Of a DNA stretch of 64,000 nt, positions 21,333 through 49,014 are shown piece after piece. The DNA lies in assembly GCA_002441245.1 (NCBI GenBank), contig DJVP01000012.1:116547-180546 (forward strand). Direction: 5' to 3'. The stretch is from Candidatus Omnitrophica bacterium UBA6253. GTDB taxonomy: Bacteria > Omnitrophota > Gorgyraeia > Gygaellales > Profunditerraquicolaceae. The stretch's first letter is position 1. Every line of letters begins with the position of its first letter. The notes beneath the pieces were generated by a model. The model made no database searches, was not told the DNA's origin, and saw only the letters and a list, made by a program, of their open reading frames with translations. Made by a program: the position numbers and the translations under genes.

Positions 21333-22209
21333 TCAGATTCTCCGTCTGGTAAATTTCTATCTGAGGTCTGCCGGTCAAAACTATTCTCTTGTCCAAAGCA
21401 GTATAGACTGCCTCCTGGCTAAAAGAAGTATTTTCGCCGCGCAATATACGCACATTTCCCTGGGCAATAATCTTATTGACAGAGCTGGACATCACCGCAG
21501 AACTTTGGGCCATCTTGGCCCCTTCCTGTTTTGCAGTAAAATAAACCTGCATTTTATCGCTATAGATGATTAAATCCGGCGTTTCTACTTTAACATTATT
21601 ATTAAATATGGCAATATTTTTTTCATAATCTACTTCCAGGGGGCCGTCGCAGATAATTACGATTTTTTCTTTTTTGGCCTTTTGCTTATTTAAAGGTTCC
21701 ATATCCAAACGCACATTCTTCTCCAATGCCACCTGCTTGAGCGCGGTCTGCCCCTTGGCACCTTCTCCGCTAAGGTTCATATCCGAACGCTGAAGGTTGA
21801 CTCTATCCAGGGTACTGACTATCTGTTGCTTGCGGTCCCAGTCCAGTGAATCAGTAGTCAGTTTTGCACCAGTAGAAGTAGTAATCACTACATTATTTTC
21901 TAAATGTACAACTCCGCTATCTTTATTGAAATTGCCGTTATCGGCTGTAAGATTAATGCTGTCTTTATCCGCGTAATGATTGCCCACCACCTCTTTAAGT
22001 TTTACAACTTCATTAGATATATCCGCTGATTTTCCGGATAGGTCCCAGGATTTTTTCCCTTTCTCGCCGTACCCGGAGAGAGAAAAATCGCCAATCTGCT
22101 GATCAGAATCTTTTGTCTCTTCGTTAGTTTTATTGGCTTCAACCGCCAAAGAACTTCTGGAGAGAAATAAAAACGCCAGGATTAAAAACGCGAGCTTCTT
22201 AAACTCCAT
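21313..22209 (-). CDS. OstA-like LPS transport periplasmic protein (LptA/LptC family)
   Basis: Signal peptide, beta-jellyroll-like repetitive sequence, and position between kdsC and lptB as in the kdsD-kdsC-lptC-lptA-lptB operon. Confidence 0.6.
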   Translation of the reverse strand: MEFKKLAFLILAFLFLSRSSLAVEANKTNEETKDSDQQIGDFSLSGYGEKGKKSWDLSGKSADISNEVVKLKEVVGNHYADKDSINLTADNGNFNKDSGVVHLENNVVITTSTGAKLTTDSLDWDRKQQIVSTLDRVNLQRSDMNLSGEGAKGQTALKQVALEKNVRLDMEPLNKQKAKKEKIVIICDGPLEVDYEKNIAIFNNNVKVETPDLIIYSDKMQVYFTAKQEGAKMAQSSAVMSSSVNKIIAQGNVRILRGENTSFSQEAVYTALDKRIVLTGRPQIEIYQTENLNAAFRN

Positions 22210-22741
22210 AAATTTTCAATATTTTTCCCCATTTACCCTGTGATTTAAGGATCATCTCGGCGATCTCCCTGACAGCCCCGCGTCCGCCCATGCGCTTAGT
22301 TATATAAACTGCGGCCTTTTTAATTTCGCCGGAGGCATTTCCTACCGCTATCGGCAGGCCTATTTTGTGCATAAGCGACAGGTCCACCAGGTCGTCCGCC
22401 ACAAAACAAATTTCATCTGTGGAAACTTTGTATTTCTTTAGAATCATGCCCAAGACCTTAGTCTTAGGAAAAACATCGGCAAAAACTTTAGCCACCCGCA
22501 TATCTTTAGCGCGCGGGAGGATAGTCTTGGAACTTTTAGCGGTAATCAGAATAGTAGGGATCCCGGCTTTGTGTAAAACATAAACCCCTAACCCGTCATG
22601 CACATCAAAAAATTTAAGCTCGCCTCCCCGGGAATCATAGACTATCCTGCCGTCAGTTAATACCCCGTCAACATCCAGAAGGAGCAGTTTGATTTTTCGC
22701 AGGCGAGCATTTAAATCTTTTTTAGCTATTCCTCCAGGCAT
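22199..22741 (-). CDS. kdsC: 3-deoxy-D-manno-octulosonate 8-phosphate phosphatase
   Basis: HAD motif LLLLDVDGVLTDG and small size. Confidence 0.85.
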   Translation of the reverse strand: MPGGIAKKDLNARLRKIKLLLLDVDGVLTDGRIVYDSRGGELKFFDVHDGLGVYVLHKAGIPTILITAKSSKTILPRAKDMRVAKVFADVFPKTKVLGMILKKYKVSTDEICFVADDLVDLSLMHKIGLPIAVGNASGEIKKAAVYITKRMGGRGAVREIAEMILKSQGKWGKILKIYGV

Positions 22742-22743
22742 GA

Positions 22744-23712
22744 TTAAACTAATCCCGCTTTAAGCAGGTCCTGTACATCCAGCAAGCCCACCGGCCGCAT
22801 AAATTTATCCACAACAGGAACTTCATCTATTTTCTTGGCCTGCAATATACGCATTGCCTCTGCAGCCAGCATATCCTTATTTACTACTGTAGGATTCCTA
22901 GTCATTACCTCTTTGATCGCTCGCATCGCCAGATTTTTATCCGTTTCAAGATGGCGGCGCAGGTCTCCATCAGTAAAAATACCTTTTAGCTTACCCTGTT
23001 TATCTACAACTGTAGCTGAACCTGCCCTTGCCCGGGTAATCGCGCATAAGACCTGCGATACCTTCTTGTCTTCATCTACTACGGCATTGGACTGCGCGCG
23101 GCGCATAATATCCTCAACCCTCAAAAGCAGTCTCCTGCCTAAAGCTCCTCCCGGATGGAAAAAAGCAAAATCTTTTTCTTTAAAACCCTTTCTCTCCAAT
23201 AAACACACAGCCAGGGCATCCGCCATTGCAAGAGTCGCGGTGGTTGAAGCCGTAGGAGCCAGGCCCAATGGGCAAGCCTCTTTTTTAACTGAGACATCTA
23301 AAACCACATCGCTGTATTTAGCAAGCACGGATTTTAAGTTCCCAGTAAGCGATATAATCGGAGAACCTATTTTTTTAAGTATAGGCAGAAGCTGTTTCAT
23401 CTCCTCGGTAGAGCCGCTGTTAGAAAGAATAACTATGATATCATCCGCAGTTACTTTACCCAAATCACCGTGAATCGCCTCCGCGGTATGCAGAAATAAA
23501 CTAGGGGTACCGGTAGAAGCAAGGGTCGCGGAAAGTTTTTGCGCGATAATACCGGTCTTGCCCATACCACTGACTACAACCCTGCCCTTATTCTTAAGGA
23601 TTAATTCAACTGCCTTAACAAATCCTTTATCCAGCCGGCTTTTTAACAATTTTACGGCCGCGGCTTCGATATCTAAAACCTCTTTTGCCCGCTTAATAAC
23701 ATTTATCTTCAT
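22744..23712 (-). CDS. kdsD: Arabinose-5-phosphate isomerase (SIS + tandem CBS)
   Basis: SIS motifs (VVVSGMGKTG), C-terminal CBS pair. Confidence 0.85.
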   Translation of the reverse strand: MKINVIKRAKEVLDIEAAAVKLLKSRLDKGFVKAVELILKNKGRVVVSGMGKTGIIAQKLSATLASTGTPSLFLHTAEAIHGDLGKVTADDIIVILSNSGSTEEMKQLLPILKKIGSPIISLTGNLKSVLAKYSDVVLDVSVKKEACPLGLAPTASTTATLAMADALAVCLLERKGFKEKDFAFFHPGGALGRRLLLRVEDIMRRAQSNAVVDEDKKVSQVLCAITRARAGSATVVDKQGKLKGIFTDGDLRRHLETDKNLAMRAIKEVMTRNPTVVNKDMLAAEAMRILQAKKIDEVPVVDKFMRPVGLLDVQDLLKAGLV

Positions 23713-24521
23713 AGTGCACGCTCAATCTTTTTGACTTGTTTTAACAAAATCTCCAATTCTTTAAAATTAATCATATTTGCCCCATCGCAAGGTGCTATCT
23801 TAGGATCAATATGCACCTCTAAAAATAAACCATCGCAGCCAAAAGCTACGGCTGCCCTGGAAAGCCCGGAGACAAATTCACTTTGGCCTCCGGAACAAGC
23901 GCCTTTTCCTCCGGGGAGCTGGACACTGTGCGTGGCGTCATAAATTACCGGATAACCAAACCCGCGCATAATCGCAAGGGCCCGGTAATCCGTAACCAGG
24001 TTATTATAACCAAAACTTGCCCCTCTTTCCGTAAGTAAAATATTTTTATTCCCGGCGGATTCAACTTTCTTGATTATCGGCAAGATATCCCAAGGAGCAA
24101 GGAACTGCCCCTTCTTGATATTCACTGTTTTGCCGGTCTTTGCCGCAGCCAACAGAATATCTGTCTGACGGCAGAGAAAAGCCGGAATCTGAATAATATC
24201 CAAGACCTTGGCTGCCTCAGCCATATCTTTTGCGCAATGCACATCGCTAAGGACAGGAACCTTAAGCTGCTGTTTTACCTTCTTTAAAATAGCCAGCCCC
24301 TTGCTTAATCCCGGGCCGCGGTAAGAATCCACGGAAAGGCGGTTGGCTTTATCAAAGCTGGATTTGAATATAAAGGGCACTTTACATGATGAGGCGATGG
24401 ATTTAATCCGCCTGGCAGCTTCAAGACAAGAGCTTTCCGACTCAATAACACAGGGCCCGGCAATAAGCACGAGCGGAAATTTATCCCCAAATTTTATATT
24501 TCCTACATTAACCTGGCGCAT
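23709..24521 (-). CDS. kdsA: 2-dehydro-3-deoxyphosphooctonate aldolase (Kdo8P synthase)
   Basis: LVLIAGPCVIES N-terminus and DAHP/Kdo8P synthase fold. Confidence 0.9.
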   Translation of the reverse strand: MRQVNVGNIKFGDKFPLVLIAGPCVIESESSCLEAARRIKSIASSCKVPFIFKSSFDKANRLSVDSYRGPGLSKGLAILKKVKQQLKVPVLSDVHCAKDMAEAAKVLDIIQIPAFLCRQTDILLAAAKTGKTVNIKKGQFLAPWDILPIIKKVESAGNKNILLTERGASFGYNNLVTDYRALAIMRGFGYPVIYDATHSVQLPGGKGACSGGQSEFVSGLSRAAVAFGCDGLFLEVHIDPKIAPCDGANMINFKELEILLKQVKKIERAL

Positions 24522-25262
24522 TTAATTTATCCCCTTTTGTAATAAAACCTTGAGCCTCTCTAGATCTTCGGGAGTATCCACGCTTATAGTATCAAATTTA
24601 GTTTCGATCACTTTAATTTTAAACCCCTCGGCTAAAACGCGCAATTGTTCCAATTTCTCCGTCCTCTCAAGATTAGAAACAGGGAGGTTCTTATAAGTAA
24701 AAAGAAAATCTTTTGTATAACCATAAAGGCCGATATGCTTATAATAACTTGCCTCTTTGATTTCGGCGTTAGGCGCTAAGTAGGGAATAGGCGCGCGCGA
24801 AAAATACAAAGCTAGGTTATTCTTCCCCACCACTACCTTTACTACGTGCGGATCAGCAATCTGCTCGGGATCTTCAATCTTTTTCATGATTGTCGCCATA
24901 CTAAGAGAGCTATCTTCTAACAAAGCACGCGCGACGTTATCAATCATCATCGGATGAACTAAAGGTTCGTCACCCTGGATATTGATAACAATCTTCACAT
25001 CCAAAGGATTGACCACCTCGCTAATCCTATCAGTACCACAAGTATGCTCTTTAGAGGTCATTACTGTTTTGGCTCCAAATTCAGTTGCGACCTTCTGGAT
25101 TATTTTATCGTCACAAGCAATAACCAAATCATCGAGTATGCGGCTTGCTTTGGCCCTTTCCCAAACATGCTGCAACATAGGCTTGCCCATAATATCCGCC
25201 AGGACCTTGCCCTTAAACCTGGTAGATAAATACCTGGCAGGTATAACTCCAATTACATCCAT
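24522..25262 (-). CDS. kdsB: 3-deoxy-manno-octulosonate cytidylyltransferase
   Basis: GVIPARYLSTRFKGK N-terminus. Confidence 0.9.
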   Translation of the reverse strand: MDVIGVIPARYLSTRFKGKVLADIMGKPMLQHVWERAKASRILDDLVIACDDKIIQKVATEFGAKTVMTSKEHTCGTDRISEVVNPLDVKIVINIQGDEPLVHPMMIDNVARALLEDSSLSMATIMKKIEDPEQIADPHVVKVVVGKNNLALYFSRAPIPYLAPNAEIKEASYYKHIGLYGYTKDFLFTYKNLPVSNLERTEKLEQLRVLAEGFKIKVIETKFDTISVDTPEDLERLKVLLQKGIN

Positions 25263-28869: not shown

Positions 28870-28870
28870 A

Positions 28871-29659
28871 CTAACCCTTTATCCACTGCATGGGAGGATT
28901 ACGTAAATACCTCTCAGTAAATATGCTATCATTAATGCCAATGCCATAAGAAATATCCGTAAACTCCGCCGTAGTGGAAGAGCCGGAATTTAAATCCTGA
29001 GCAATCATTTTTACAATGGTAGGATACCCTTGGATCTCTTTTATTTCCGCTGCCTCCACTATACGGTAGAGTTTCCCCTCTTTGTCATAATATTCAGCCT
29101 TTAGCGGGATAAAATTACTCTTATCCACTTGTACTTGATAATAGGAAAATTCGACCTGGTCGGCATCTTTAGGCGTATTCTTGATCATATAACTATCGCC
29201 CTCGCTCGATAAAAGTTCATGGTTATCCAGGTTTACGCTGCGGCCCGAAACATCTTCATATAGAAAATTCGTCCCGGCAAAACTGGAGCGTTTATCAGAA
29301 GAGGCGACACGGCGCACAAGGTCAAGAGCCGGAAGATAAAGCCATCGGTCATCGTCTTTGCTCAGGTGCTTCCAGACAATATAGGCCATGCCCTTAACAT
29401 CGCTGGGCTTATCAAAATAAACGTAATATTTTTGATCTCCGTTATCCGATATATTAAAACGCAATATCGTCATTTGGCGCTCGCGCCTGCGGCCCTGGGA
29501 GTCGGTTATGACCATCTTTGCCTGGGAACGTCCGTCCTTATCCTGATAATACCCCATATGGCTTGCGCGGCCGGCAATATCATCGGCACTCATTTGCGCA
29601 TATACAGAACCGATGCCCATGAGAAATAAAAATAAGAATATTGAGATATTTTTTTTCAC
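28871..29659 (-). CDS. LolA-like periplasmic lipoprotein-sorting-type protein (DUF1329-like)
   Basis: Signal peptide, about 260 aa. Its coupled position after an MMPL/RND exporter matches the known exporter / LolA-like / OM barrel trio. Confidence 0.5.
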   Translation of the reverse strand: MKKNISIFLFLFLMGIGSVYAQMSADDIAGRASHMGYYQDKDGRSQAKMVITDSQGRRRERQMTILRFNISDNGDQKYYVYFDKPSDVKGMAYIVWKHLSKDDDRWLYLPALDLVRRVASSDKRSSFAGTNFLYEDVSGRSVNLDNHELLSSEGDSYMIKNTPKDADQVEFSYYQVQVDKSNFIPLKAEYYDKEGKLYRIVEAAEIKEIQGYPTIVKMIAQDLNSGSSTTAEFTDISYGIGINDSIFTERYLRNPPMQWIKG

Positions 29660-32187: not shown

Positions 32188-32189
32188 CT

Positions 32190-32465
32190 TTAACCCCTCC
32201 CTTTATATAAAGCCCCTAATAAAAACCTGACCCTTTTATCCAGGATGCGGTAGCAGGATTTTGTCCCTTCTTTACGGATTCCAAGTATACCGCGTGACTT
32301 TAAGATACCCAGATGCTGGGAAATCGTTGACTGCGGAAGACCGAGTGCCTTGACCATCATCTGGACATTACATTCATTTTTCGTTAACAGCCCTTTCACG
32401 ATCTTAAGGCGTACCGGATGCCCCAGGGCCTTCAAAAAATCGCTCTCCTCATTATAATTCAACAT
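32190..32465 (-). CDS. ArsR/SmtB-family transcriptional repressor
   Basis: 91 aa winged helix with LGHPVRLKIV...STISQHLGILK. Perfect GGAGG RBS 5 nt upstream. Stop overlaps the exporter start. Confidence 0.8.
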   Translation of the reverse strand: MLNYNEESDFLKALGHPVRLKIVKGLLTKNECNVQMMVKALGLPQSTISQHLGILKSRGILGIRKEGTKSCYRILDKRVRFLLGALYKGRG

Positions 32466-32484
32466 GCATCCTCCTTAAACTATT

Positions 32485-32532
32485 ATTTATCTATTAATCG
32501 TGATAATACGATAAATAGATAAATTTGTCAAG
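32485..32532 (-). promoter_or_regulatory. Sigma70-like promoter (TTGACA-17-TATTAT on the minus strand) overlapped by a 40-bp imperfect palindrome, the likely ArsR operator
   Basis: Minus-strand TTGACA is the complement of 32527-32532 and TATTAT of 32503-32508. Inverted repeat ATTTATCTATT-ATCGT...ACGAT-AAATAGATAAAT spans 32485-32524. Confidence 0.6.
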
Positions 32533-32565
32533 CAAATTTTTTATTGATTGCTGGGCAATATTAAA

Positions 32566-34587
32566 CTAACCGCCTTTGAGTATTGATTCAGCTACAGAAA
32601 GCACATCCTCGATACTGATTGCCTTAAGACAGGCAAATTCTTTTTCACAATTATGCGCCAGGCATTGGATACAGCCTACGTCTTTATGCAGATATTTATC
32701 CCTTTTTCCTAAAGGGCCCCAGCGCCGCGGGCTAAGCCCGGGTTGATTGCGGCCAAAGATGGAAATTACGGGTATTCCTAAGCTTGAGGCGATATGCACC
32801 GGACCAGAATCATTAGAGATAAACAAAGAACACCTTTTAAGGATGCTGGCAAGATGACTCAGCGAAGTCTTGCCGGACAGATTTAACGCCTTATCTCCTA
32901 ATTTTTGAGCTACCATATTTGCCAATGGAATATCCCTGGCCCCGGCTACAATCAGAATCTTAAAATTATGCCGTTTGGCTAAAATTTCGGCAACCTGAGC
33001 GAACCTATTTATCGGCCAAATCTTTGAAGGACAACTTGCCCCAGGGTTAATCGCTAATAATTTATCTGCTTCTTCGATGCCATTGCCAGCAAACAAGTCA
33101 CTAACCCATTGCTCTGATTCCGGCTTTATGGGCATGAATAAATCCCGGGCATTGCCGCTTATACCTAAATCGCTAAGTAAATCCAGGTTATATTCCGCTT
33201 CATGCCTCAAGCCTTCTTGCTTTTTATGGGGTTTCTTGAGATTATTCAAGAAACCGAATTTACGGTTATACCCCAGGCGGCAAGGAATGCCAGCCAGGAA
33301 AATTATCAGATGCATACGATTGGTAGGATGCAGGATTATTGCCAAATCAAATCTTTTCTTTTTTAGCCTGCCGGCAAATCTTAGCGAACGAATCCAGCTT
33401 CTATGCTTAATCTCTTTATCATAAATTATAGTTTCATCCAGATATGGATTTGCCTCCACAATATCCCTGGCATAAGGAGCAACCATCATAGAAATATAAG
33501 CCTGTGGGTACTTTTGCCTTAAGGCCTTAATTACCGGAGTAGACAAAAGCACATCTCCTATACGGTCAGTACGCACGATTAAAATGCGCCGGTAAATCTT
33601 TTCTTTGGCATCAGGGGTATTTTCTTTATCTTTGCCTTTAAGTAAATAGTTTACCTGCTTAAATACATCATCAACCTTCAGACAAGACAAGCATTCAAGG
33701 CTAGCAAAACGGCAGGAGGCCTTTTCGCACGGCCGGCAAAATATATCTTTTTTAACAATTATTCTCTTCTGCGACCACGGCCCGTATTTATTTTCATCCG
33801 TAGGGCCGAATATTGAAACAACCGGAATATCCAGGTAACTAGCCAAATGCATTGCCGCGCTATCGTTGGTGATTAAAAGCCTGGCTTTTCTTAGTAAAGC
33901 TGCCAATTGATTAATTGAGGTTTTGGCGCAAAGATTAATGATTCTTTCCGGACAGGACTGGTGGACAAATGAACATACGGGTTCGTCGGTTTTATCCCCT
34001 ACCAAAACTACATCCCAGCCTTCTTTAATAAGTAGGCTGCATAGATGGCTGAAATTCTCTTTATCCCAACGCTTAATCTGACTCCTTGCTCCGGGAGCAA
34101 CTACTACTATTTTAGCGCTGTCTTTTATGTTTTGTCCTTTTAAAATATCCTCGATATATTTTACATCTTCGGCCGCGATAACCAGTGATTGCTGTTTCTT
34201 GCTCCTGAAAGGATACCCGGCAAAGCAGGCCCAAAATAAATGCCTGTCCTTCATATGTTTAAACTTTCCCGGTATAAAACGTAATGGGGAACTTCTTTTT
34301 TTAGCAGGCAGGAAAGCCCCGAACAAGCTATTGCGTAAGTCAACAATTATATCGAATTTCTCTTTGGACAGAAAAAGAAATAATTTTATCTTATCTATTA
34401 ACTTGGCATGTTTATTAAAAACAATTACATTTTCTATCGCCTGGTTGCTAATGAATATCTCTTTGGGCCTCTCAGGAACCAGGCAACTGATCTTGGCATT
34501 AGGGTATTCATTGCACAATGCGTCTAAAACCGGCAAGGTTAAAATGCAATCGCCTATATTGCTTAAAGTAATAAAAAGTATCTTCAT
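32566..34587 (-). CDS. Tandem-fused glycosyltransferase family 9 (two heptosyltransferase-like domains)
   Basis: Two repeats of the GT9 N-terminal signature (ILFITLSNIGDCILTLPVLDAL and RILIVRTDRIGDVLLSTPVIKAL), each with a C-terminal sugar-nucleotide domain. 673 aa. Confidence 0.75.
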   Translation of the reverse strand: MKILFITLSNIGDCILTLPVLDALCNEYPNAKISCLVPERPKEIFISNQAIENVIVFNKHAKLIDKIKLFLFLSKEKFDIIVDLRNSLFGAFLPAKKRSSPLRFIPGKFKHMKDRHLFWACFAGYPFRSKKQQSLVIAAEDVKYIEDILKGQNIKDSAKIVVVAPGARSQIKRWDKENFSHLCSLLIKEGWDVVLVGDKTDEPVCSFVHQSCPERIINLCAKTSINQLAALLRKARLLITNDSAAMHLASYLDIPVVSIFGPTDENKYGPWSQKRIIVKKDIFCRPCEKASCRFASLECLSCLKVDDVFKQVNYLLKGKDKENTPDAKEKIYRRILIVRTDRIGDVLLSTPVIKALRQKYPQAYISMMVAPYARDIVEANPYLDETIIYDKEIKHRSWIRSLRFAGRLKKKRFDLAIILHPTNRMHLIIFLAGIPCRLGYNRKFGFLNNLKKPHKKQEGLRHEAEYNLDLLSDLGISGNARDLFMPIKPESEQWVSDLFAGNGIEEADKLLAINPGASCPSKIWPINRFAQVAEILAKRHNFKILIVAGARDIPLANMVAQKLGDKALNLSGKTSLSHLASILKRCSLFISNDSGPVHIASSLGIPVISIFGRNQPGLSPRRWGPLGKRDKYLHKDVGCIQCLAHNCEKEFACLKAISIEDVLSVAESILKGG

Positions 34588-35618
34588 AATTTCCTAACTT
34601 TTCTGGCCTCTGTCAAGACATCATCAGGAGTAACCGCTTTCATACAACGGTTATCCTGGCAATTAACTCTATAGCAAGGAATCGCGCAACCAACATCTTT
34701 CTGCAAGATAACCACATTAGTATCCGGATAAGGGCCGGTTATTTCTCTGGCCGTCGGTCCAAAAATCCCTATTATCTTCTTAGCCCCAACGGCATTAGCT
34801 ATATGCATTGGCCCGGTATCCGCGGTAACAAAAAGGCTTGCCCGCTTAGCTAGGGCGGCCAAATGCTTTATATTAAAAACCCCGCAGCCAATCAAGGGCT
34901 TCTCTTTCATTTTTTCTTTTATCTGATTAGCCAGCGGCAGGTCAGATATACTACCGGTTATAATTACCCTTGCCTTTACTTCATCGATCAAACTATCAGC
35001 TAGCTTAGCCCAGTAATCCTTCGGCCAACGTTTAGGCATCCAATTTCCTCCGGGATTAAGCGCAACTAAAAAATCATCCTTACCCACGCCATTTCTTTTC
35101 AGGAAATCATATACATATTCCTCTTCTTCAGGAGTAAAAATAAAATCCAAGTACCTGTCTTCCACGCGTAAACCCGCTTTTTCAACAACATTCAGATAAA
35201 AATCTATACGGTGCAAAGAATCCCTTTTCGGCATAGAGATCTTTTGAGTCAGCAAGAAAGAACGTTTTTTAGTATTATGGCCTATCCTCTGCTGTATCCC
35301 GGCCAACCGACAAATTAACGCGCGGCTAAATGAACGATGCAACAGGAACGCAGTATCAAATTTCTTGCTTTTAAGCAGGCTGATAAAATTTAATTTTGCC
35401 AGCATACCCTTATGCCTGTCCTTTTCATCAAAAATAATTACTTCATCTAAATACGGATTTCCTTTTAATATCGGATAACACCGACTGGGGATTGCACAGG
35501 CAATATAGCTATCGGGATAATTCCTGCGTACATTCCTGATAGTGGCCGTAGAAAACAAAACATCCCCCAGCCAATTTACATTAAAGATAAGGATACGTTT
35601 TGGCTTAAGTTTACTCAT
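34584..35618 (-). CDS. Glycosyltransferase family 9 (ADP-heptose:LPS heptosyltransferase, WaaF/WaaC-like)
   Basis: RILIFNVNWLGDVLFSTATIRNV signature, 344 aa. Confidence 0.8.
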   Translation of the reverse strand: MSKLKPKRILIFNVNWLGDVLFSTATIRNVRRNYPDSYIACAIPSRCYPILKGNPYLDEVIIFDEKDRHKGMLAKLNFISLLKSKKFDTAFLLHRSFSRALICRLAGIQQRIGHNTKKRSFLLTQKISMPKRDSLHRIDFYLNVVEKAGLRVEDRYLDFIFTPEEEEYVYDFLKRNGVGKDDFLVALNPGGNWMPKRWPKDYWAKLADSLIDEVKARVIITGSISDLPLANQIKEKMKEKPLIGCGVFNIKHLAALAKRASLFVTADTGPMHIANAVGAKKIIGIFGPTAREITGPYPDTNVVILQKDVGCAIPCYRVNCQDNRCMKAVTPDDVLTEARKVRKL

Positions 35619-36734
35619 TTACGCTGGCTCTCCCGGCCGGATTCTTTTCTCTAAACATTCTTTATAAACCTTTTCTGTCGCATCAACCATTTTCTCTTTA
35701 GAAAAATTATCCATAATGAATTTACGGGCGCTAGTTGCCAAATTATCGCGCATTTGCTTATCAGTCAAAAGGCGCATAATCGCCCCCGCTAAAGATACCG
35801 GGTCAGCAGGCTCAACTAATAATCCGTTTTGCCCGTCTTTAATCAGGGTTTTTATCCCCCCCACTGCCGAACCTACAACTGCCAACCCCTGCGCCATTGC
35901 TTCCATAAGCGCTAAGCCTAAACCCTCCTGCAATGAAGGCATAACAAAGATATCCAGTGCCGCAAGCACATTTTTAGTTCCTTCAGCTTGCGGTAAGAAT
36001 AAAACACTATTTTTGATAGCTAGATCATCCGCTTCTTCAACCAGCACATCCTTCATTTTACCTTCGCCGACAACAACCAATTTCACTGAAGGAAAGTTCT
36101 TGATAATAATCTGCATGGCCTTAAAAAGATAAATATGCCCTTTCACGTCAGATAAACGGGCAACAATCCCCACTAAAGGGGCATCTTCTATGCCTAAAGA
36201 TTCCCTGAAACTTTGCCTGCCTGAAAAATCACCGAAACTTTGCAGATCTATACCGTTATTTATTACTTTAATTTTGTTTTCATCCAGATTAAAATCAAGA
36301 ATCAGATGTTCCTTTACCTGCTGGCTTATAGCAATAATAGCATTATCCCAACAAGGAAAAAACAAGCGGGATAGCTTTGGTTTAAAAAAACCATGGCAGG
36401 TAAATATATGCGGTTTACGGCAATAACGACTCAATAAACTCCCCAAAACCTGAGTAGTTCGGCTGTTTGAATGTATCAAATCAATATTAAGCCGCTTGAT
36501 TTCTTTTCTGAGCCTTAAAAAACTGATAATGATCTTCGGGCTGACCTCTTTTTTCGTGCATAAAGGAACCCGTATGTTCTTTATGCCTGCTGCCGTGAAC
36601 TTTCCTAAGAGTCCGCCTCCTCCGGAAGCCAGGTAAACACTATGGCCATTTTCTTTAAGTCCGGAGGCTAGAGTAAACAGATAGCTGGAAATTCCCCCTA
36701 CATTAAGATGGTTAGCTATAAACAATATATTCAT
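35619..36734 (-). CDS. Glycosyltransferase family 4 (GT-B, group 1)
   Basis: MNILFIANHLNVGGISSY N-terminus and C-terminal E-x7-E-like GT4 region. Confidence 0.8.
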   Translation of the reverse strand: MNILFIANHLNVGGISSYLFTLASGLKENGHSVYLASGGGGLLGKFTAAGIKNIRVPLCTKKEVSPKIIISFLRLRKEIKRLNIDLIHSNSRTTQVLGSLLSRYCRKPHIFTCHGFFKPKLSRLFFPCWDNAIIAISQQVKEHLILDFNLDENKIKVINNGIDLQSFGDFSGRQSFRESLGIEDAPLVGIVARLSDVKGHIYLFKAMQIIIKNFPSVKLVVVGEGKMKDVLVEEADDLAIKNSVLFLPQAEGTKNVLAALDIFVMPSLQEGLGLALMEAMAQGLAVVGSAVGGIKTLIKDGQNGLLVEPADPVSLAGAIMRLLTDKQMRDNLATSARKFIMDNFSKEKMVDATEKVYKECLEKRIRPGEPA

Positions 36735-38824
36735 TATAATAATTTATCTATTGCCGCAAGCACTTCCTCAGGAGTAATCTGCCTCATACAGTGCTTGGTT
36801 CGACATTTAGTTTTATAACAAGGCTGGCAATCCAGATTTTTATTAATCACAATGCAGTTCTTTCCTGGCGGAAGATGGCGGCGCGCATCAGTAGGCCCAA
36901 AGAGCGCGATAAAAGGAGTCCTTACCGCGGATGCGATATGCAAAGGCGAAGAATCTGCTGAAATAAACACATTGCATTTCTTGATCAGGGCAGCCAACTC
37001 ATTTACACTGGTTTTACCGCAGGCATTAATAATTTTGGTACCCTTAAGTGAATTTACGAGCATGTCAGCATAGACTAAATCCTGGGCAGTACCGGTAATC
37101 ACTACGCGTATATCGCGCAACCCCAAATCTTCACAAAGACGCATCAGGTATTGCTGCGGCCAAAGTTTGGTACTCCATCTCCTGGAAGCGCTAATATTGA
37201 TCCCCACTATTTTCTGAGCCTCGCTCAGCCATTGGGCGTTTAAAAGCTCATCCACGCGCTTTATATCTTCAGGAGACGGCCAAAGCTCAAGCGAATTATT
37301 CAAAAGGTCAATACCGAGCATTTTTAATATGCGAAACTGGTGCGTTACCGGGTCGATAAGCGGTTTTCCATCTTTAATGCGGTGCTGAAGCAAAAAAGAA
37401 AGCTTTTTGTTATCATAACCGTAGCAATTAACGCAGCCGCTCAGGTAAGAAAGTATATGGCTGGACCGGCTGTTCTGCAGGTCTATAACAATATCAAAAT
37501 TCTTTTTCCTTAAGACGCCTCCTATGCCCAATAACCCCTTTAGCCCCTTATCATTATTTTTCAAATCACACACCAATAGCTCATCTATATAAGGGCTTCT
37601 TAGCAATACATCTTTTGATTCCTCTCCGGTCAAAAAGCTTATCTTATAATTTGCTTGGGAAAATTTCTCCCAAACCGCCCTTAATGCAGCCGTGGAAAGG
37701 ATTATATCCCCTAGAGAGCTGAGCTTAATTATCAGAATCTTAAAATTACTCAAGGCATCACGGTAAACATCCAAGGTATTCTTAACCATCAACTCCACCG
37801 TATATTTTTCTTTAATCTTAACGTAGGCATTCTCTGCCAAATTCTGTGCTAATTGCGTATTTTCATAAATACGCAGTATAGCATCGGCCATGCTTTTATG
37901 ATCTGCTGGAGGAACTAATAGACCGTTTTTGCCATCTTCAATGATATCAATTACCCCGCCTACCTTAGTAGCTACCACCGGTACGCCGGAGGCTTGGGCC
38001 TCAACCACTACCCGGCCAAATGCCTCATGTGTTGTCGTAGCCAAAACCACCAGGTCCAGATGCGCCAGTATCCCAGGGATATCACGCTGTGTTCCTAAGA
38101 ATTCTGTGCAATGCCATAGACCAAGCCGTCGTACTAACACCTGTACTTCCTCCTTATACGCCTCCTTTGATGCCGGGGCATCCCCCACTATCCATATTTT
38201 TAACCGTGGTACAGTCCTTGAGATACGCGCCATAGCCTTAATAAAATGCAGGTGGCCTTTTAGAGGAGTGATCCTGCCGATAATCCCTACGTTAAACTCC
38301 TCTTTTCTCTTTGACTTAGGGTCAAGGTATTTAAACCTTTCCATATCCACGCTGCGCGGAACAAGCCTGATACGCTCATGAGGCACTGCAAAGTCTTCAA
38401 TCATATGCCGGGCAATCACGTTGCTTAAAACAATCACTCTCTTAGCCCAACCCATTACTAAACTAAAAAGATGCTTCTTATAGTAGCCATGACAAGTAGT
38501 TATAAATACGGCCTTGGTCCTACGGCAGGCAAAATAAGCAATCCATGCCGGCACGCGCGAACGGGCATGAACGATATCAATCTCCTCCTGTTTGATTATC
38601 CCTACTAGAATAGGGATTAATTTATATATAGAAAAAATTGATTTTTTATGTACTGCTAATGTGTAATGTTTGGCGCCGCATGCTTCAAGCTCTCCGACCA
38701 GGGCTCCGCCGGCAGAAACCACTACTACTTTATGCCCCAGGCGCACCAGATACTTGGACAAATCCAAGGTACCGGTCTCAACCCCGCCTACATTAAGTTC
38801 AGGCAATATTTGCAGTATCTTCAT
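36734..38824 (-). CDS. Fusion protein: GT4 glycosyltransferase (N-terminal) + GT9 heptosyltransferase (C-terminal)
   Basis: N-terminus ILQILPELNVGGVE (GT4), then from about residue 360 FKILIIKLSSLGDIILSTAALRAV (GT9). 696 aa. Confidence 0.75.
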   Translation of the reverse strand: MKILQILPELNVGGVETGTLDLSKYLVRLGHKVVVVSAGGALVGELEACGAKHYTLAVHKKSIFSIYKLIPILVGIIKQEEIDIVHARSRVPAWIAYFACRRTKAVFITTCHGYYKKHLFSLVMGWAKRVIVLSNVIARHMIEDFAVPHERIRLVPRSVDMERFKYLDPKSKRKEEFNVGIIGRITPLKGHLHFIKAMARISRTVPRLKIWIVGDAPASKEAYKEEVQVLVRRLGLWHCTEFLGTQRDIPGILAHLDLVVLATTTHEAFGRVVVEAQASGVPVVATKVGGVIDIIEDGKNGLLVPPADHKSMADAILRIYENTQLAQNLAENAYVKIKEKYTVELMVKNTLDVYRDALSNFKILIIKLSSLGDIILSTAALRAVWEKFSQANYKISFLTGEESKDVLLRSPYIDELLVCDLKNNDKGLKGLLGIGGVLRKKNFDIVIDLQNSRSSHILSYLSGCVNCYGYDNKKLSFLLQHRIKDGKPLIDPVTHQFRILKMLGIDLLNNSLELWPSPEDIKRVDELLNAQWLSEAQKIVGINISASRRWSTKLWPQQYLMRLCEDLGLRDIRVVITGTAQDLVYADMLVNSLKGTKIINACGKTSVNELAALIKKCNVFISADSSPLHIASAVRTPFIALFGPTDARRHLPPGKNCIVINKNLDCQPCYKTKCRTKHCMRQITPEEVLAAIDKLL

Positions 38825-40770
38825 AGTATTTTATCTAACCCTGCGCTTACCCGTAAGTTATCTTCAGGAAAACTTACCCTGGGATGATTCTGTAATATTT
38901 CTCTAATGAAGCCGGAGATTTCTTTAATTTGCTTTAAATATATATATCTTTTATCCTGATAATTTTTTAGAAAGCGTTGATGCTTCTTGCTAAGGCCGGC
39001 GGCCTTAAATACCACAACATATCTTTCTGCCATAACCGCCTCAGAGATCATCGATATACTCTCCGGCGAACTTATAATTATACTGCTTAAGCCTAATATG
39101 CCGCCAACTGCATCAGGATGGTTGTTTTCATTGGCAATAATTAAAAGCTTACAGCGCAAATAAGCCTCAAATTCTTTTTTAAGCACCTGCTCCACTTCCG
39201 GCGGCGTACGGCGGGAGGTAGAAAGAAGAATATCCGCGTTCAACTCTTCGGCAGATTGTTTAATTTGACCAATCAATCCTGTTATCGCCTGACGGCTAAT
39301 AGCAAACCCTTTACTATCGCCTCCAATTAATATGCCAATACAAGGATTAAGCAAAGGGCCTTTTAAGAGGCCGGACTTCTGCAATCTCCCTGATTTTTCT
39401 TTTAAATAATCCCCGTCAATTAAATTAAGCGCCCCCTCGGTCATTACCACATTTTTCTTATTTTGTGGCCTGTCATGCCGGGGGATAATCGCCAGATCAA
39501 ACTTTTTCAGGCTTAAGACAGCCGGCCGCATTACAATAACTGACTTGGCCTGGTTTGCTTTAGCCAATATATAATTTACAGCGCTCAATTTATCTCCCGC
39601 AGAAATAATAATATCGGGCTTAAGGTTGATTAAACCCTGCCAACTTTCACTGGTTAAGGCATAATGCAAATAACACAGGCAGCGATGGCATTGATACCTG
39701 CCGTTAAAAACAGCCATCCAGTTAAATATAACCCTGAACAGGCAGCTACGGAATTTCACCTCACAGATAGATAATGTAGATTTTATTCCCCGCCCTGATA
39801 ATTGCCGATTGACCAATTTAGCTACGCTTTCAGACTGATGGAGGTGGCCTGCCTTTCCATCGGAAAGGATCAATACCTCTTTCTCTTTACCGTATTTCCA
39901 GATTTTATAAGTCCAGAGATACTCATAGGGGTATTGCTGGATATACTTCTCATAAATATCAGCCAACCTCTGCAGGTTGTCATGCAGGTCATTTTGTGCG
40001 TCACCGCTTTTGGTTGCCACATAAACCTGGTCCAGAATAACTTTAGTATGAGGACCTTTTACGCGCGTATAAAAAACAGGGATTATGGAACAGCCGTATT
40101 TCAAAGCCAGCTTCACCGCTCCGGTAGACATAGAGGCGGATTTACCAAAAAACCTTACGATCTCCCCCTTTTTGCCGCCCTGATCAGTAGTCATCCCGAT
40201 TGACTGGTTATTTTTAAGGACATCAATCAACTCCCGCAATCCCCCTTGCTTATGGATAAGCTTTGCCCCTTGTTTAAGCCTATAGGTATTAAGCAGGTCA
40301 TTTAACCGCGGGAATCCCTGATCTCGCACAAATAATATAAAAGGGAACCCGAGGTTTGCGCAGATGATATTGGAAAGTTCCCAGTTACCTTCATGTGCGA
40401 TAAGAAAAATTACCCCTTTGCCTCTTTTAAAAGCCTCGCCAATATAATGCCTGTTTTCAATATGGATATACTTTTCAAGATACCTCTTATTTATACGCGG
40501 GATAAAAGAAATCTCTATAAGGTTCTGGCCGAATGCCTGATAAACCTTGCGGGTTATCTTTGCGGCTAACCGAAAGTCTTTATTTATTGTCACGGCCTTC
40601 TTGATATTCGCGTAAGCGACCGCGCGATGCCGGGAATCAAAAAAATAGATAACGTCCCCCAGCCTCCTGCCCAAAAACAGGCTTGCGTTCAAAGGCAGCA
40701 AGAAAGTAAACAGGCTGGCGGCCTTAAAGAGAATACAGCTTAAGTAATCGGCGATCAAATTCTGCTTCAT
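38821..40770 (-). CDS. Fusion protein: LpxL/HtrB-type lipid A late acyltransferase (N-terminal) + ELM1-like GT-B domain (C-terminal)
   Basis: N-terminal half resembles lauroyl/myristoyl acyltransferases (about 290 aa). C-terminal half begins LILSDGKAGHLHQSESVAKL, like the ELM1-family N-terminus. Confidence 0.6.
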   Translation of the reverse strand: MKQNLIADYLSCILFKAASLFTFLLPLNASLFLGRRLGDVIYFFDSRHRAVAYANIKKAVTINKDFRLAAKITRKVYQAFGQNLIEISFIPRINKRYLEKYIHIENRHYIGEAFKRGKGVIFLIAHEGNWELSNIICANLGFPFILFVRDQGFPRLNDLLNTYRLKQGAKLIHKQGGLRELIDVLKNNQSIGMTTDQGGKKGEIVRFFGKSASMSTGAVKLALKYGCSIIPVFYTRVKGPHTKVILDQVYVATKSGDAQNDLHDNLQRLADIYEKYIQQYPYEYLWTYKIWKYGKEKEVLILSDGKAGHLHQSESVAKLVNRQLSGRGIKSTLSICEVKFRSCLFRVIFNWMAVFNGRYQCHRCLCYLHYALTSESWQGLINLKPDIIISAGDKLSAVNYILAKANQAKSVIVMRPAVLSLKKFDLAIIPRHDRPQNKKNVVMTEGALNLIDGDYLKEKSGRLQKSGLLKGPLLNPCIGILIGGDSKGFAISRQAITGLIGQIKQSAEELNADILLSTSRRTPPEVEQVLKKEFEAYLRCKLLIIANENNHPDAVGGILGLSSIIISSPESISMISEAVMAERYVVVFKAAGLSKKHQRFLKNYQDKRYIYLKQIKEISGFIREILQNHPRVSFPEDNLRVSAGLDKIL

Positions 40771-41785
40771 TCTTAGTTATGACCAGTTTAATATTCAAAG
40801 AGAATATGCCCGGATAGGTAAATTTAAGCCTGGAAATCTTCACGGCATCTTTTTCGGTTGTGATAATCGTATCTAAATTCCTGTCTCTGGCGCATTTAAT
40901 AATACCATCTAAGTCTGCCTGCGCATAATCGTGATGATCAATAAATCTCAAGGCCTCTGCGATATTAATTCCTAAAGAAGAAACCGTGTTCTCGAAGGCC
41001 CGCGGGTTGCCTATAGCTGAAAAAACTACCGCGGATTTTCCGTTAAAACTATCTGGGCTTAAAATTTCATCCGGAGCATGCAGATTACCAAAACCCTCAG
41101 GCCTATGCCTTGACTCTACAATAAGAGCCCGGGAATTTAACTGTCTTAATCTTGCCGTCAGGCCAGCGGTATCCTGGCCAGGATAAACTTGAGTCAAAAC
41201 AAATATATCTGCCCTGCTCAACGCAATCAACGGCTCACGTAAAAAACCCGCCGGAAGCAAACGAAGATTACCAAAAGGATTGCAGGCATCGATAGTTACA
41301 ATCTCCAGATCTTTAAATATACGCCACTGCTGCATACCATCATCAAGAATCAGGATATTTGCAGCATGATCCTTGATTGCCCTGGCTGCCCCTTTTAACC
41401 TGTCTTTATCGACAATAACAGGAGTTTGCGGCAGCTTTTTTTGTAACATAGCCGGTTCATCTCCCATACCTTGCTCCCCGGAAAGTTTTATATCTCTTTT
41501 ATAGCCCCGGGTAAGCACCGCTATCTTATTGCCTTTCTGGCTTAGTTTAACAACCAAATATTCTACAAGGCTGGTCTTGCCTGTGCCGCCTAGAGTAATG
41601 TTTCCTACGCTGATTAACGTACAATTAACCCGTGCCGGCCGAAACCTATGGAAACCCGCCGCAATAACCACAGCCAATCCATAAACCAAAGACAACATAA
41701 AAAGCAGGCCTCTTAAACACGCTGCCAACGGGCCTTTTATCTTGCAGGTAACTAAGTTATAAAGGTAGTCCTTTGGTAAAAGCAT
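40724..41785 (-). CDS. lpxK: Tetraacyldisaccharide 4'-kinase
   Basis: LISVGNITLGGTGKTSLVEYLV P-loop and TRGYKR motif. Confidence 0.85.
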   Translation of the reverse strand: MLLPKDYLYNLVTCKIKGPLAACLRGLLFMLSLVYGLAVVIAAGFHRFRPARVNCTLISVGNITLGGTGKTSLVEYLVVKLSQKGNKIAVLTRGYKRDIKLSGEQGMGDEPAMLQKKLPQTPVIVDKDRLKGAARAIKDHAANILILDDGMQQWRIFKDLEIVTIDACNPFGNLRLLPAGFLREPLIALSRADIFVLTQVYPGQDTAGLTARLRQLNSRALIVESRHRPEGFGNLHAPDEILSPDSFNGKSAVVFSAIGNPRAFENTVSSLGINIAEALRFIDHHDYAQADLDGIIKCARDRNLDTIITTEKDAVKISRLKFTYPGIFSLNIKLVITKNEAEFDRRLLKLYSL

Positions 41786-42848: not shown

Positions 42849-43571
42849 TTAATCAGATGACATAAAGGAAAGATTGCGTTCGATGAAATCAATCAATTCC
42901 TGCTGAATATCAGCCGAGATATTGCGGAATTCCACGCCGAAACCCGGATACTCATGGGGCTGGACTTCTTTATCCGGGACCCACACAACAGCTGCCTCAA
43001 TTACAAGTTCTTCTTTCTTTGGCGCCAGCCTCATCTTAAGTATTACCTCATCCCCCAGCTTAAAATTATCGCAACCGAATATAAAGGCACCCACCGCGCT
43101 CAAATTAAGTATATCAACCTTAAGGCAGCTTGGCGAAGTCGAAGATTTGGATTTTAACTCTACTTTTAAATCAATGGGCAGGCGTTTAAACCTGCGGCGC
43201 AGCTGCATCTTTTTGATATCCTCAATAGCTTTGTCTTCCTTAAAACTATTAACCGCTAAATCCTCCGTGGCATAAACCTCAATAACCCTGTCCATGCCGG
43301 AAACCGCAAATACTCCCCTGAGGTGCGCCGGAATATTTAAAAGCTTCATCCTACCCTTGCTGTTGACCACTTCTTTATAAGCAATAACTACAACCGAGAT
43401 CCCCATATAATCAATACCTTCAATATCCTCCAAATTGCAGAGTATATCCGTATATCCATCACGCAGGCATTGCCCAACCACCTCTACAAGATTAGCGGAA
43501 TTAACGTCTATGCGGCCGGATAAATCCATAATGATTATATAATCTTTCTGCCTTAATTTTATCTCTAGCAT
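42849..43571 (-). CDS. STAS (anti-sigma-factor antagonist-like) - PilZ fusion protein
   Basis: N-terminal STAS-like 110 aa. C-terminal RRRFKR...NLSAVGAFI...GFGVEF matches PilZ RxxxR and (D/N)xSxxG motifs. Confidence 0.6.
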   Translation of the reverse strand: MLEIKLRQKDYIIIMDLSGRIDVNSANLVEVVGQCLRDGYTDILCNLEDIEGIDYMGISVVVIAYKEVVNSKGRMKLLNIPAHLRGVFAVSGMDRVIEVYATEDLAVNSFKEDKAIEDIKKMQLRRRFKRLPIDLKVELKSKSSTSPSCLKVDILNLSAVGAFIFGCDNFKLGDEVILKMRLAPKKEELVIEAAVVWVPDKEVQPHEYPGFGVEFRNISADIQQELIDFIERNLSFMSSD

Positions 43572-47742: not shown

Positions 47743-49014
47743 TCAATCAATTAACAACTGTTTGATAGCCTCAATATTCTTTTTGGTCGCACCCCTGTTA
47801 CTGATAATCAATTCATAAGCGTGTTCAACCAATTGCTCAGCCGACAGATCACTAGATAATATTTCTTTTGTTTTACTGGCCAACTCTCGTGAATCACACA
47901 CCATAACAGCAGCCTTATTCTTCAAAAACAATTTGCTAATATCCCGGAAGTTAAACATATGAGGACCAAAGATCACCGGCTTTTTTTGACTTGCCGGTTC
48001 AAGGATATTGTGGCCGCCGGTCTTAACCAGGCTACCTCCGACAAAAACAATATCCGCAGCAGCATAATAGTTAAGCAGCTCCCCCATAACATCAAGAATA
48101 AACACAGGATTATTAATATGGACAGGAGATGCCCCGGATATGCTTGAAATAAAAACCGGCATAAAATCCTGCTGCGAAATTAATCTTCCGACATCCCCGC
48201 AGCGTTCCGGATGCCGCGGGACAAGCAGTAATTTTAACTTTGGGAAAGTAAATAAAAGTTCTTTGTAGGCCTCAATAATTATCTCTTCTTCTCCGGGGTG
48301 CGTACTGCCGCAAACCCATAACTTATCATCTAAATCCAGCCAAAGCTTATTGCGGATAAAAAAAGGATCAAATCCTGCTATTGCCTCTAAATTAATGTCA
48401 AACTTGACATTTCCTGTAACCTGGACGTTCCCTTTATCTACTCCCAAATCTGCTAATCGCAAGGCATCAGTTTCCGTTTGCACGCAGAACTTACCAACCT
48501 TCCTTAAAATCGGCCGGATAAGCAATCTTATCGCGCGGTAGCCGGAATAAGAATTATCGGATATCCTGCCATTAACCGTAATTATCGGAATCTTCTGTTT
48601 ATACAGACAATTAATTAAGTTCGGCCAAATTTCTGTTTCAGCAATAATAAACAGACAGGGGTTAATCTTCTTTATTACCTTCTTAACAATAAAACTCAAA
48701 TCCAAGGGAAGATAAGTCAGGAGGTCGCCATCATTGATTAGCCCCCGGGCGATTTTATTGCCGGTTGCGGTTACAGTGGAAATAACTAATTTCTTATGCG
48801 GATAGGCCTTTCTTAATTCACCGACCAACCCCTTTATGGAAACAGCCTCTCCTACGCTTACCGCATGTATCCAAATCGGCTTATCCAGGTTTAAATTATC
48901 CGGCAAAAACCCGAAACGCCTGAAGAACCCATAATGGAACTTACCCTTAAGTAAATATACCGGCAGATAAATTAATACGAAAATTAAAATTATTAAATCA
49001 TAAAGCAGGAACAT
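47743..49014 (-). CDS. waaA: 3-deoxy-D-manno-octulosonic acid (Kdo) transferase
   Basis: IWIHAVSVGEAVSIKGLV N-terminal motif and GT30 fold. Confidence 0.85.
   Translation of the reverse strand: MFLLYDLIILIFVLIYLPVYLLKGKFHYGFFRRFGFLPDNLNLDKPIWIHAVSVGEAVSIKGLVGELRKAYPHKKLVISTVTATGNKIARGLINDGDLLTYLPLDLSFIVKKVIKKINPCLFIIAETEIWPNLINCLYKQKIPIITVNGRISDNSYSGYRAIRLLIRPILRKVGKFCVQTETDALRLADLGVDKGNVQVTGNVKFDINLEAIAGFDPFFIRNKLWLDLDDKLWVCGSTHPGEEEIIIEAYKELLFTFPKLKLLLVPRHPERCGDVGRLISQQDFMPVFISSISGASPVHINNPVFILDVMGELLNYYAAADIVFVGGSLVKTGGHNILEPASQKKPVIFGPHMFNFRDISKLFLKNKAAVMVCDSRELASKTKEILSSDLSAEQLVEHAYELIISNRGATKKNIEAIKQLLID

Follow-up and report, generated by a model that had tools for sequence, protein, structure and literature searches.

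The gene at positions 38821..40770 of the window (the whole 64,000-nucleotide stretch of contig DJVP01000012.1, positions 116,547 to 180,546, from Candidatus Omnitrophica bacterium UBA6253) encodes a single polypeptide of 649 amino acids (aa) in which an LpxL-type late acyltransferase of lipid A synthesis is joined to a glycosyltransferase (GT) domain of the ELM1 family; we write this architecture LpxL::ELM1. The C-terminal domain is homologous to KdoT, the Acinetobacter baumannii enzyme that adds a third 3-deoxy-D-manno-oct-2-ulosonic acid (Kdo) to Kdo2-lipid IVA, and the gene that follows encodes a homolog of GnaT, the partner of KdoT. The fusion is genuine and phylum-wide in Omnitrophota; it joins two known enzyme types and constitutes no new kind of system. 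Judging from its homologies, it probably represents the recently discovered KdoT/GnaT pathway in a bifunctional form that extends through the phylum. Coordinates below are window positions, and all listed features lie on the minus strand unless otherwise stated.

Domain architecture of the fusion protein

The open reading frame (ORF) is complete and uninterrupted, starts with ATG, and encodes two Pfam domains, each scoring far above its cut-off: Lip_A_acyltrans (PF03279) at aa 16-292 (145.2 bits vs. a cut-off of 22.3, E 3e-42), where the match spans profile positions 20-294 of 295 and thus the whole domain, and Mito_fiss_Elm1 (PF06258) at aa 307-610 (153.7 bits vs. 27, E 8e-45). A Pfam match to PF04413 (Glycos_transf_N) was not found in the fusion. 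We assign aa 1-293 (39892..40770) to the acyltransferase domain, aa 294-296 (39883..39891) to the junction and aa 297-649 (38824..39882) to the GT-B glycosyltransferase domain of the ELM1/GtrOC1/KdoT family. This domain-level description, an LpxL-type acyltransferase joined to an ELM1-like GT-B domain, is as good as certain. The same two domains had been proposed for this polypeptide by an earlier inspection of the DNA letters without database searches (hereafter the sequence-only reading), and its expectation of an ELM1-family match over approximately residues 300-649 was borne out by the PF06258 hit. A hydrophobic helix near the N terminus (aa ~5-31, 40678..40758) is the probable inner-membrane anchor, a role suggested by the LpxL/LpxM family; it is the sole stretch of the fusion with a 19-residue Kyte-Doolittle mean above 1.5, and the AlphaFold2 (AF2) prediction has helices spanning aa 5-24 and 27-44.

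Only about five residues (YGKEK, which includes aa 294-296) separate the two domains. From the catalytic histidine H126 to D304, the first invariant aspartate of the ELM1 domain, 116 of the 120 close homologs have a spacing of 178 residues, and among 93 diverse representatives 63 have one of 178-179, while spacing within the ELM1 domain is far looser, differing by tens of residues between homologs. This constancy marks the junction as one of fixed length, practically linker-free, rather than a flexible tether.

The acyltransferase half

The catalytic motif HEGNWE (aa 126-131, 40378..40395) is of the HX4E form, with H126 and E131 aligned to the catalytic His/Glu dyad of A. baumannii LpxM; in PDB 5KNK, a mutant of that enzyme, the Glu equivalent to E131 is replaced by Ala. 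The sequence-only reading had looked for HX4D here: a catalytic HX4(D/E) motif is indeed present, but its acidic residue is Glu, not Asp. The motif is invariant in alignment A1 and kept in all 89 of the full-length fusion representatives described below, and this half has the LpxM/PatA-type acyltransferase fold. Its profile scores place it as a member of the Lip_A_acyltrans family without an LpxL, LpxM or LpxP sub-type. LpxL of Escherichia coli is Kdo-dependent.

Homology of the ELM1-like half to KdoT

The A. baumannii protein A1S_2903 (GtrOC1, described as a mitochondrial fission protein of the ELM1-like type) is required to build the core past Kdo2 (PMC10936431), and was shown in 2025 to be KdoT, which moves a third Kdo (KdoIII) from cytidine monophosphate-Kdo (CMP-Kdo) onto Kdo2-lipid IVA (PMC12856342, PMC10936431). 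KdoT by itself is catalytically sufficient in vitro; it is inactive on lipid IVA, works after the bifunctional WaaA, and favors a tetra-acylated substrate (PMC12856342). Activity requires arginines R179/R180 of its SRRT motif, proposed to bind the Kdo carboxylate, and the D8A, H13A, H109A and D110A mutants are still functional (PMC12856342). KdoT and the GT4 enzyme GnaT (LpsB) are co-dependent in vivo, and a distant Rickettsia homolog of KdoT complemented delta-kdoT (PMC12856342).

As the KdoT reference we took, from a PLSDB record, the A. baumannii ortholog encoded directly after ilvE (locus L089, 6995-7885, 296 aa), whose D8, H13, H109, D110 and S178-T181 agree exactly with the published numbering and which itself scores 203.5 bits with the PF06258 model. 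By BLASTP the ELM1 half of the window protein is 26% identical to it over 285 aa (E 3e-18), and a profile of 19 diverse ELM1 domains matched it in hhalign at 99.8% (E 4e-29, 265 columns). The C-terminal half opens, as the sequence-only reading had recognized, with SDGKAGHxxQ; the SDGKAGH motif (aa 303-309, 39844..39864) is the same 7-mer as KdoT residues 7-13, pairing D304 with D8 and H309 with H13. Further along, H432-D433 (39472..39477) correspond to H109-D110, the SRRT motif (aa 519-522, 39205..39216) to S178-T181, and the ESISMISEA block of the C-terminal lobe (aa 570-578, 39037..39063) to DSVSMVFEA.

Many of these positions hold across the family. In a diverse alignment of 19 ELM1 domains (A2), whose members are only 30-44% identical, D304, G308, Q312, H432, D433, G483, G484, S519, R520 and R521 are invariant, together with S571, M574, S576 and E577 of the S..M.SE block; the column of KdoT H13 (H309 in the window protein) varies. 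The S, R and R of SRRT are invariant in alignment A1 as well as in A2, and S[RK][RK][TS] was found in 148 of the 150 best cluster representatives from the search described below. The ELM1 half has the GT-B fold with its two Rossmann-like lobes; we found no solved structure within the ELM1 family, profile search included. On these alignments, then, the ELM1-like half is homologous to KdoT, with every landmark residue conserved. The GT-B activity, which the sequence-only reading had called uncharacterised and made part of a novel lipid A modification module, belongs to a family with a characterised member, a CMP-Kdo:Kdo2-lipid IVA KdoIII transferase (PMC10936431, PMC12856342), and this clear homology with its landmark residues makes inner-core Kdo addition, rather than a change to lipid A, the most likely second activity.

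Compared with A. baumannii KdoT, the window domain has an additional stretch of about 25 aa (aa ~348-372, 39655..39729), Cys-rich and partly hydrophobic, which leaves a gap when the two sequences are aligned. It contains NGRYQCHRCLCYLHY and could be a membrane-association or metal-binding element.

The lpxK operon and Kdo genes

The fusion gene is the second of six closely packed genes. The gene immediately upstream in transcription is lpxK (tetraacyldisaccharide 4'-kinase, 40724..41785; Pfam LpxK E 2.5e-76, TIGR00682 above cut-off), which overlaps it by 47 nucleotides (nt); the sequence-only reading had the fusion gene directly upstream of lpxK, an order that reverses because the gene lies on the minus strand. 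The next gene, whose start overlaps the fusion stop codon by 4 nt, encodes a 696-aa GT4::GT9 fusion. Its GT4 domain (aa 1-360, 37745..38824, assigned by the Pfam GT4 families) shares 34% identity with A. baumannii LpsB/GnaT along its entire length (E 7e-69), so that a KdoT-like domain is followed in this operon by a GnaT-like one, and the ELM1 half thus has a GT4 partner of the GnaT/LpsB type by genetic linkage. The GT9 (heptosyltransferase-family) domain of the same protein (36734..37741; Glyco_transf_9 at aa 438-678, E 2.5e-36) scores 130.5 bits with TIGR02195, slightly below the cut-off of 134.6.

Three more glycosyltransferase genes, identified with Pfam, complete the cluster: a second GT4 gene (35619..36734, 371 aa), whose product is merely 25% identical to LpsB, a GT9 gene (34584..35618, 344 aa), and a tandem GT9::GT9 gene (32566..34587, 673 aa, with Glyco_transf_9 in two stretches), the last of the packed set. 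The overlaps or gaps between successive genes in the order lpxK, LpxL::ELM1, GT4::GT9, GT4, GT9 and GT9::GT9 are 47, 4, 1, 0 and 4 nt, from which we take the six to form one operon. We rely on the overlaps because a scan for promoters and terminators gave sites no commoner than in shuffled sequence, which do not define the transcription unit. The GT9::GT9 gene is the third gene fusion of the operon; it is represented by two separate GT9 ORFs in several relatives, for example at loci L065, L066, L070 and L078.

A canonical waaA (GT30 Kdo transferase, 47743..49014; Glycos_transf_N PF04413, E 9e-58) lies 7 kb upstream, and kdsC, kdsD, kdsA and kdsB, for synthesis of CMP-Kdo and hence the presumed donor supply, lie at 22199..25262 (Pfam Hydrolase_3, SIS+CBS, DAHP_synth_1 and CTP_transf_3). 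We considered the ELM1 domain as a replacement for WaaA and rejected this because of the canonical waaA in the same locus; the domain would thus be an additional transferase. The ELM1 profile has no similarity to the window's own WaaA (hhalign probability 0.6%).

Conservation and distribution

The identical fusion protein (100%) occurs on 12 contigs from independent samples, NCBI metagenome-assembled genome (MAG) assemblies among them. Both Pfam domains are present in all 120 of the best database clusters (63-100% identity), and the named clusters among these are Candidatus Omnitrophota MAGs. An exhaustive HMMER search of 1.84 billion cluster representatives with the ELM1 half as query gave 2391 matches; the best 150 (representatives of 50%-identity clusters) comprise 89 full-length LpxL::ELM1 proteins, down to 31% identity, 15 complete standalone ELM1 proteins (~350 aa), 3 other fusions, and fragments for the remainder. 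Relatives of 470-530 aa with what might be another N-terminal domain (LpxJ/DUF374) were rejected as a separate class: all seven that we tested are truncated LpxL::ELM1.

We scanned one genome for each GTDB species with alignment A3 (tighter than A2), and a relative of the ELM1 domain is encoded in at least 567 of these species-level genomes. The best 80 genomes all belong to Omnitrophota; a few carry the label 'uncultured Planctomycetales/Planctomycetia'. In these 80 loci the gene order waaA-lpxK-[LpxL::ELM1]-[GT4::GT9]-GT4-GT9-GT9 is nearly universal, with waaA directly beside lpxK in many, and LpxL::ELM1 is a single ORF in 73, while 3 of the 80 are cut by contig ends. In four (L045, L051, L063 and L064) LpxK::ELM1 takes the place of LpxL::ELM1; no LpxL domain was found in the 13-kb locus of any of these four Omnitrophota genomes, and LpxK::ELM1 may have arisen through loss of the lpxL part. 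The LpxK::ELM1 proteins include P0136 and P0171, and L063 is a complete chromosome (CP070837.1). In one Omnitrophota MAG (L008, 5142-7032) the LpxL part runs over two overlapping ORFs, either through a frameshift, which would make it a pseudogene, or through sequencing error.

The sequence-only reading had suggested that such a coupling in one polypeptide would be a novel module. NCBI and JGI already name hundreds of copies 'ELM1/GtrOC1 family putative glycosyltransferase' or 'lauroyl/myristoyl acyltransferase/mitochondrial fission protein ELM1', and a RefSeq protein of Methylophaga, described next, has the same architecture. Our full-text literature searches found no paper describing an LpxL::ELM1 fusion, and the KdoT papers (PMC10936431, PMC12856342) mention neither fusions nor Omnitrophota.

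Fusions and gene linkage in other bacteria

The same architecture occurs in a cultured bacterium, Methylophaga pinxianii TMB1265, on the plasmid pWTT2411: WP_226069883.1, which RefSeq names 'ELM1/GtrOC1 family putative glycosyltransferase', carries its LpxL domain at aa 11-296 and its ELM1 domain at aa 374-660. Its LpxL half shares 37-40% identity with E. coli LpxL/LpxP, and its ELM1 half 35% with KdoT. The genes that follow encode a GT4 protein 46% identical to LpsB, another GT4 protein, a GT9 protein and an O-antigen ligase. Because both halves are gammaproteobacterial in type, identity to the window protein is low and the linker is about 75 residues long, the Methylophaga fusion probably originated separately from that of Omnitrophota. 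The plasmid region (NZ_CP095734.1, 150264-169097, locus L090) is an island for remodelling of lipopolysaccharide (LPS) and lipid A in a deep-sea gammaproteobacterium; next to the fusion gene it also has eptA, dgkA and a PAP2 phosphatase gene, and it includes genes for a two-component system and an LTA-synthase-family protein.

Linkage to the GT4 gene extends beyond LpxL::ELM1. A GT4::GT9 gene comes immediately after a GT9::ELM1 fusion on an unclassified metagenome contig (L088) and immediately after an unfused ELM1 gene in a MAG that carries the label Deltaproteobacteria (L086); a GnaT-like GT4 comes after the ELM1 domain in every context that we examined. In A. baumannii itself (CP035931.1, locus L092, 3683-5984), lpxL directly precedes lpsB/gnaT, and the two genes share a strand. 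Another A. baumannii acyltransferase gene (L091), which we take to be probably that of LpxM, is a paralog adjoining comEC with no lpsB beside it. LpxL, KdoT and GnaT are thus linked in three arrangements: the Omnitrophota fusion, the Methylophaga fusion and the Acinetobacter gene adjacency.

Several of the PLSDB 'plasmid' records encountered here, CP040041.1 (561 kb), CP035931.1 (1.02 Mb), NZ_CP064203.1 (3.97 Mb) and others, are evidently A. baumannii chromosome; they carry ilvE and the outer-core locus as well as genes such as purM and lolD.

Proposed function and its alternatives

The reading we favor, with more confidence than doubt, is that the fusion would act on Kdo2-lipid IVA as a membrane-anchored bifunctional enzyme, both late acyltransferase and extra-Kdo transferase. 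In the scheme that we infer, with its donor, acceptor, reaction order and channelling, LpxK would yield lipid IVA and the canonical WaaA would add Kdo to give Kdo2-lipid IVA. The fusion, anchored in the membrane by its N-terminal helix, would attach a secondary acyl chain to the Kdo-substituted lipid IVA through H126/E131 of its LpxL/LpxM-type domain, and its KdoT-type inverting GT-B domain would attach KdoIII from CMP-Kdo to Kdo2-lipid IVA, with the donor carboxylate positioned by R520/R521 of SRRT. The translationally coupled GT4::GT9 protein would receive the product: its GnaT/LpsB-like GT4 domain would attach a sugar to the new Kdo, and its GT9 domain would extend the core. The preference of KdoT for a tetra-acylated substrate and the Kdo dependence of LpxL imply a shared substrate, which offers a rationale for fusing the two; since both would use the same membrane-bound substrate, the fixed junction of about five residues would co-localize the activities and may channel that substrate.

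Several observations weigh against this reading. The donor specificity of a GT-B enzyme cannot be read from homology at 26% identity, and relative to KdoT the window domain has insertions of ~25 and ~16 residues. SRRT, being present in nearly all relatives retrieved, may mark the family and not the use of Kdo. The acyltransferase half falls below the NCBIfam equivalog cut-offs of all 17 LpxL/LpxM/LpxP models, its best score being 137.7 bits vs. a cut-off of 248 (PRK08419). AF2 confidence (predicted local distance difference test) drops to 63 at the junction, aa 281-290, so that a rigid inter-domain interface is no more than a possibility, and the four LpxK::ELM1 genomes indicate that the glycosyltransferase is not strictly dependent on the acyltransferase in cis.

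The donor question leads to the alternative that the ELM1-like domain is an active inner-core or lipid A GT-B enzyme whose donor or acceptor position differs from that of KdoT, transferring for example another ulosonic or uronic acid, or a neutral sugar. We regard this as unlikely, though well short of negligible: all the KdoT landmark residues are kept, including the arginines proposed for the Kdo carboxylate, the GnaT-like partner is conserved and the CMP-Kdo pathway is encoded nearby, and distance within the family did not prevent the Rickettsia homolog from complementing delta-kdoT (PMC12856342). Kdo might also be the donor at an earlier step, the ELM1-like domain adding the second Kdo after a monofunctional WaaA and the fusion then acylating Kdo2-lipid IVA. 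Monofunctional WaaA enzymes do exist, as in Aquifex (PDB 2XCI), the number of Kdo residues added by the Omnitrophota WaaA is not readable from its sequence, and waaA, lpxK and the fusion gene are contiguous in many relatives; nonetheless the inactivity of KdoT on lipid IVA, and its place after a bifunctional WaaA in A. baumannii (PMC12856342), make this order of events improbable.

Catalysis itself could be doubted, since plant ELM1, a dynamin adaptor, is without a known enzymatic role (PMC10936431) and the function retained by the D8A, H13A, H109A and D110A mutants of KdoT leaves the family with no known classical catalytic base (PMC12856342). The ELM1-like domain would then be a non-catalytic scaffold that recruits or organizes the downstream glycosyltransferases at the membrane beside LpxL. 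We consider this very improbable, given that KdoT alone is catalytically sufficient in vitro (PMC12856342) and that D8, HD, GG, S-R-R and S..M.SE are strictly invariant at 30-44% identity, which is the pattern of an active site. Finally, misassembly, a frameshift or a missed stop might have joined two genes artefactually, and the split LpxL part at L008 and the existence of standalone ELM1 genes could be cited in its favor; but with the identical protein on 12 contigs, the architecture shared by 73 of the 80 genomes and by 89 of the 150 representatives at a fixed junction length, and its recurrence on the finished plasmid of a cultured bacterium (Methylophaga), we give this virtually no credence, and the conservation data effectively refute it.

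The favored bifunctional reading has a more ambitious extension, in which the LpxL::KdoT-like and GnaT-like::GT9 proteins would form a physically coupled assembly line with acylation mechanistically tied to the third Kdo; this LpxL might, for example, depend on or be gated by the Kdo that its own C-terminal domain adds, a Kdo3-dependent acylation checkpoint. The idea draws on the fusions in Omnitrophota and, apparently separately, in Methylophaga, and on the adjacency of lpxL and gnaT in Acinetobacter, and we hold it as a speculation that is rather doubtful. If true, it would mean selection for the coupling of acylation to Kdo addition, and an ancient, widespread alternative inner-core pathway once thought confined to Acinetobacter and Rickettsia.

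Other features of the window

Genes of the window lie nearly all on the minus strand, the clear exception being a DEAD/DSHCT helicase gene (56596-58485); GC skew is negative in each 2-kb window of the 64 kb, which fits a single replichore. Scans of the 64 kb detected no tRNA genes and no Rfam families. The kds genes belong to a Kdo synthesis and LPS transport block (20610-26278, minus strand) with genes for a PfkB-family sugar kinase, KdsB, KdsA, KdsD, KdsC, an LptC/OstA-like protein and LptB, after which come those for trigger factor and ClpP. Directly downstream of the six-gene cluster (27583-32566, minus strand), a small ArsR/HTH_5 regulator is encoded, along with an MMPL/RND-type transporter of 843 aa, a TP_0789-like/DUF1329 protein and a protein of 428 aa without a Pfam match; together they may form a module for lipid export. 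Just upstream of the lpxK operon, between OsmC and HAD hydrolase genes, a STAS+PilZ protein is encoded (42849-43571, minus strand), possibly a cyclic di-GMP-binding protein resembling anti-sigma-antagonists. A 573-aa ORF without a Pfam match (14607-16328, minus strand), between phosphoglycerate dehydrogenase and HMGL-like genes, occurs on at least 12 contigs.

Significance and comparison with known systems

An enzymatic role for bacterial ELM1-like proteins dates only from 2024-2025, for Acinetobacter and, by complementation, for one Rickettsia homolog. The locus described here extends the KdoT/GnaT pair to Omnitrophota, so that it is no curiosity of those two groups, and the repeated fusion of the ELM1 domain to LpxL, LpxK or a heptosyltransferase is independent genomic evidence for action at the Kdo2-lipid IVA stage; it suggests a functional coupling between late acylation and the addition of extra Kdo. 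The plasmid-borne gene of M. pinxianii provides a cultured system for the fusion, and the misleading database name 'mitochondrial fission ELM1' can be corrected for hundreds of proteins.

The closest comparison is with KdoT. The window domain shares with it PF06258, the GT-B fold, the identical SDGKAGH, the conserved HD, TSRRTP and (E/D)S(I/V)SM..EA, the genetic link to a GnaT/LpsB-like GT4 and the presence of a canonical WaaA besides. KdoT, however, is a free-standing protein of 296 aa encoded in an outer-core locus, whereas the window domain is a C-terminal fusion to LpxL in an lpxK operon. WaaA/KdtA (GT30) has no detectable profile relation to the ELM1 domain and is encoded separately in the same locus. 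Plant ELM1, which gives PF06258 its name, shares the Pfam family and recruits a dynamin in mitochondrial fission; no enzymatic role is known for it (PMC10936431). Compared with the characterised LpxL, LpxM and LpxP (structure: A. baumannii LpxM, PDB 5KN7/5KNK), to which its acyltransferase half is ~20-27% identical, the window protein has an extra C-terminal GT-B domain. Methylophaga WP_226069883.1 shows the same order of LpxL then ELM1, followed by an LpsB/GnaT-like GT4 gene and a GT9 gene; it differs in its linker (~75 aa vs. ~5), in the identity of its halves to the window protein (23-27%), in the gammaproteobacterial type of both halves and in being plasmid-borne.

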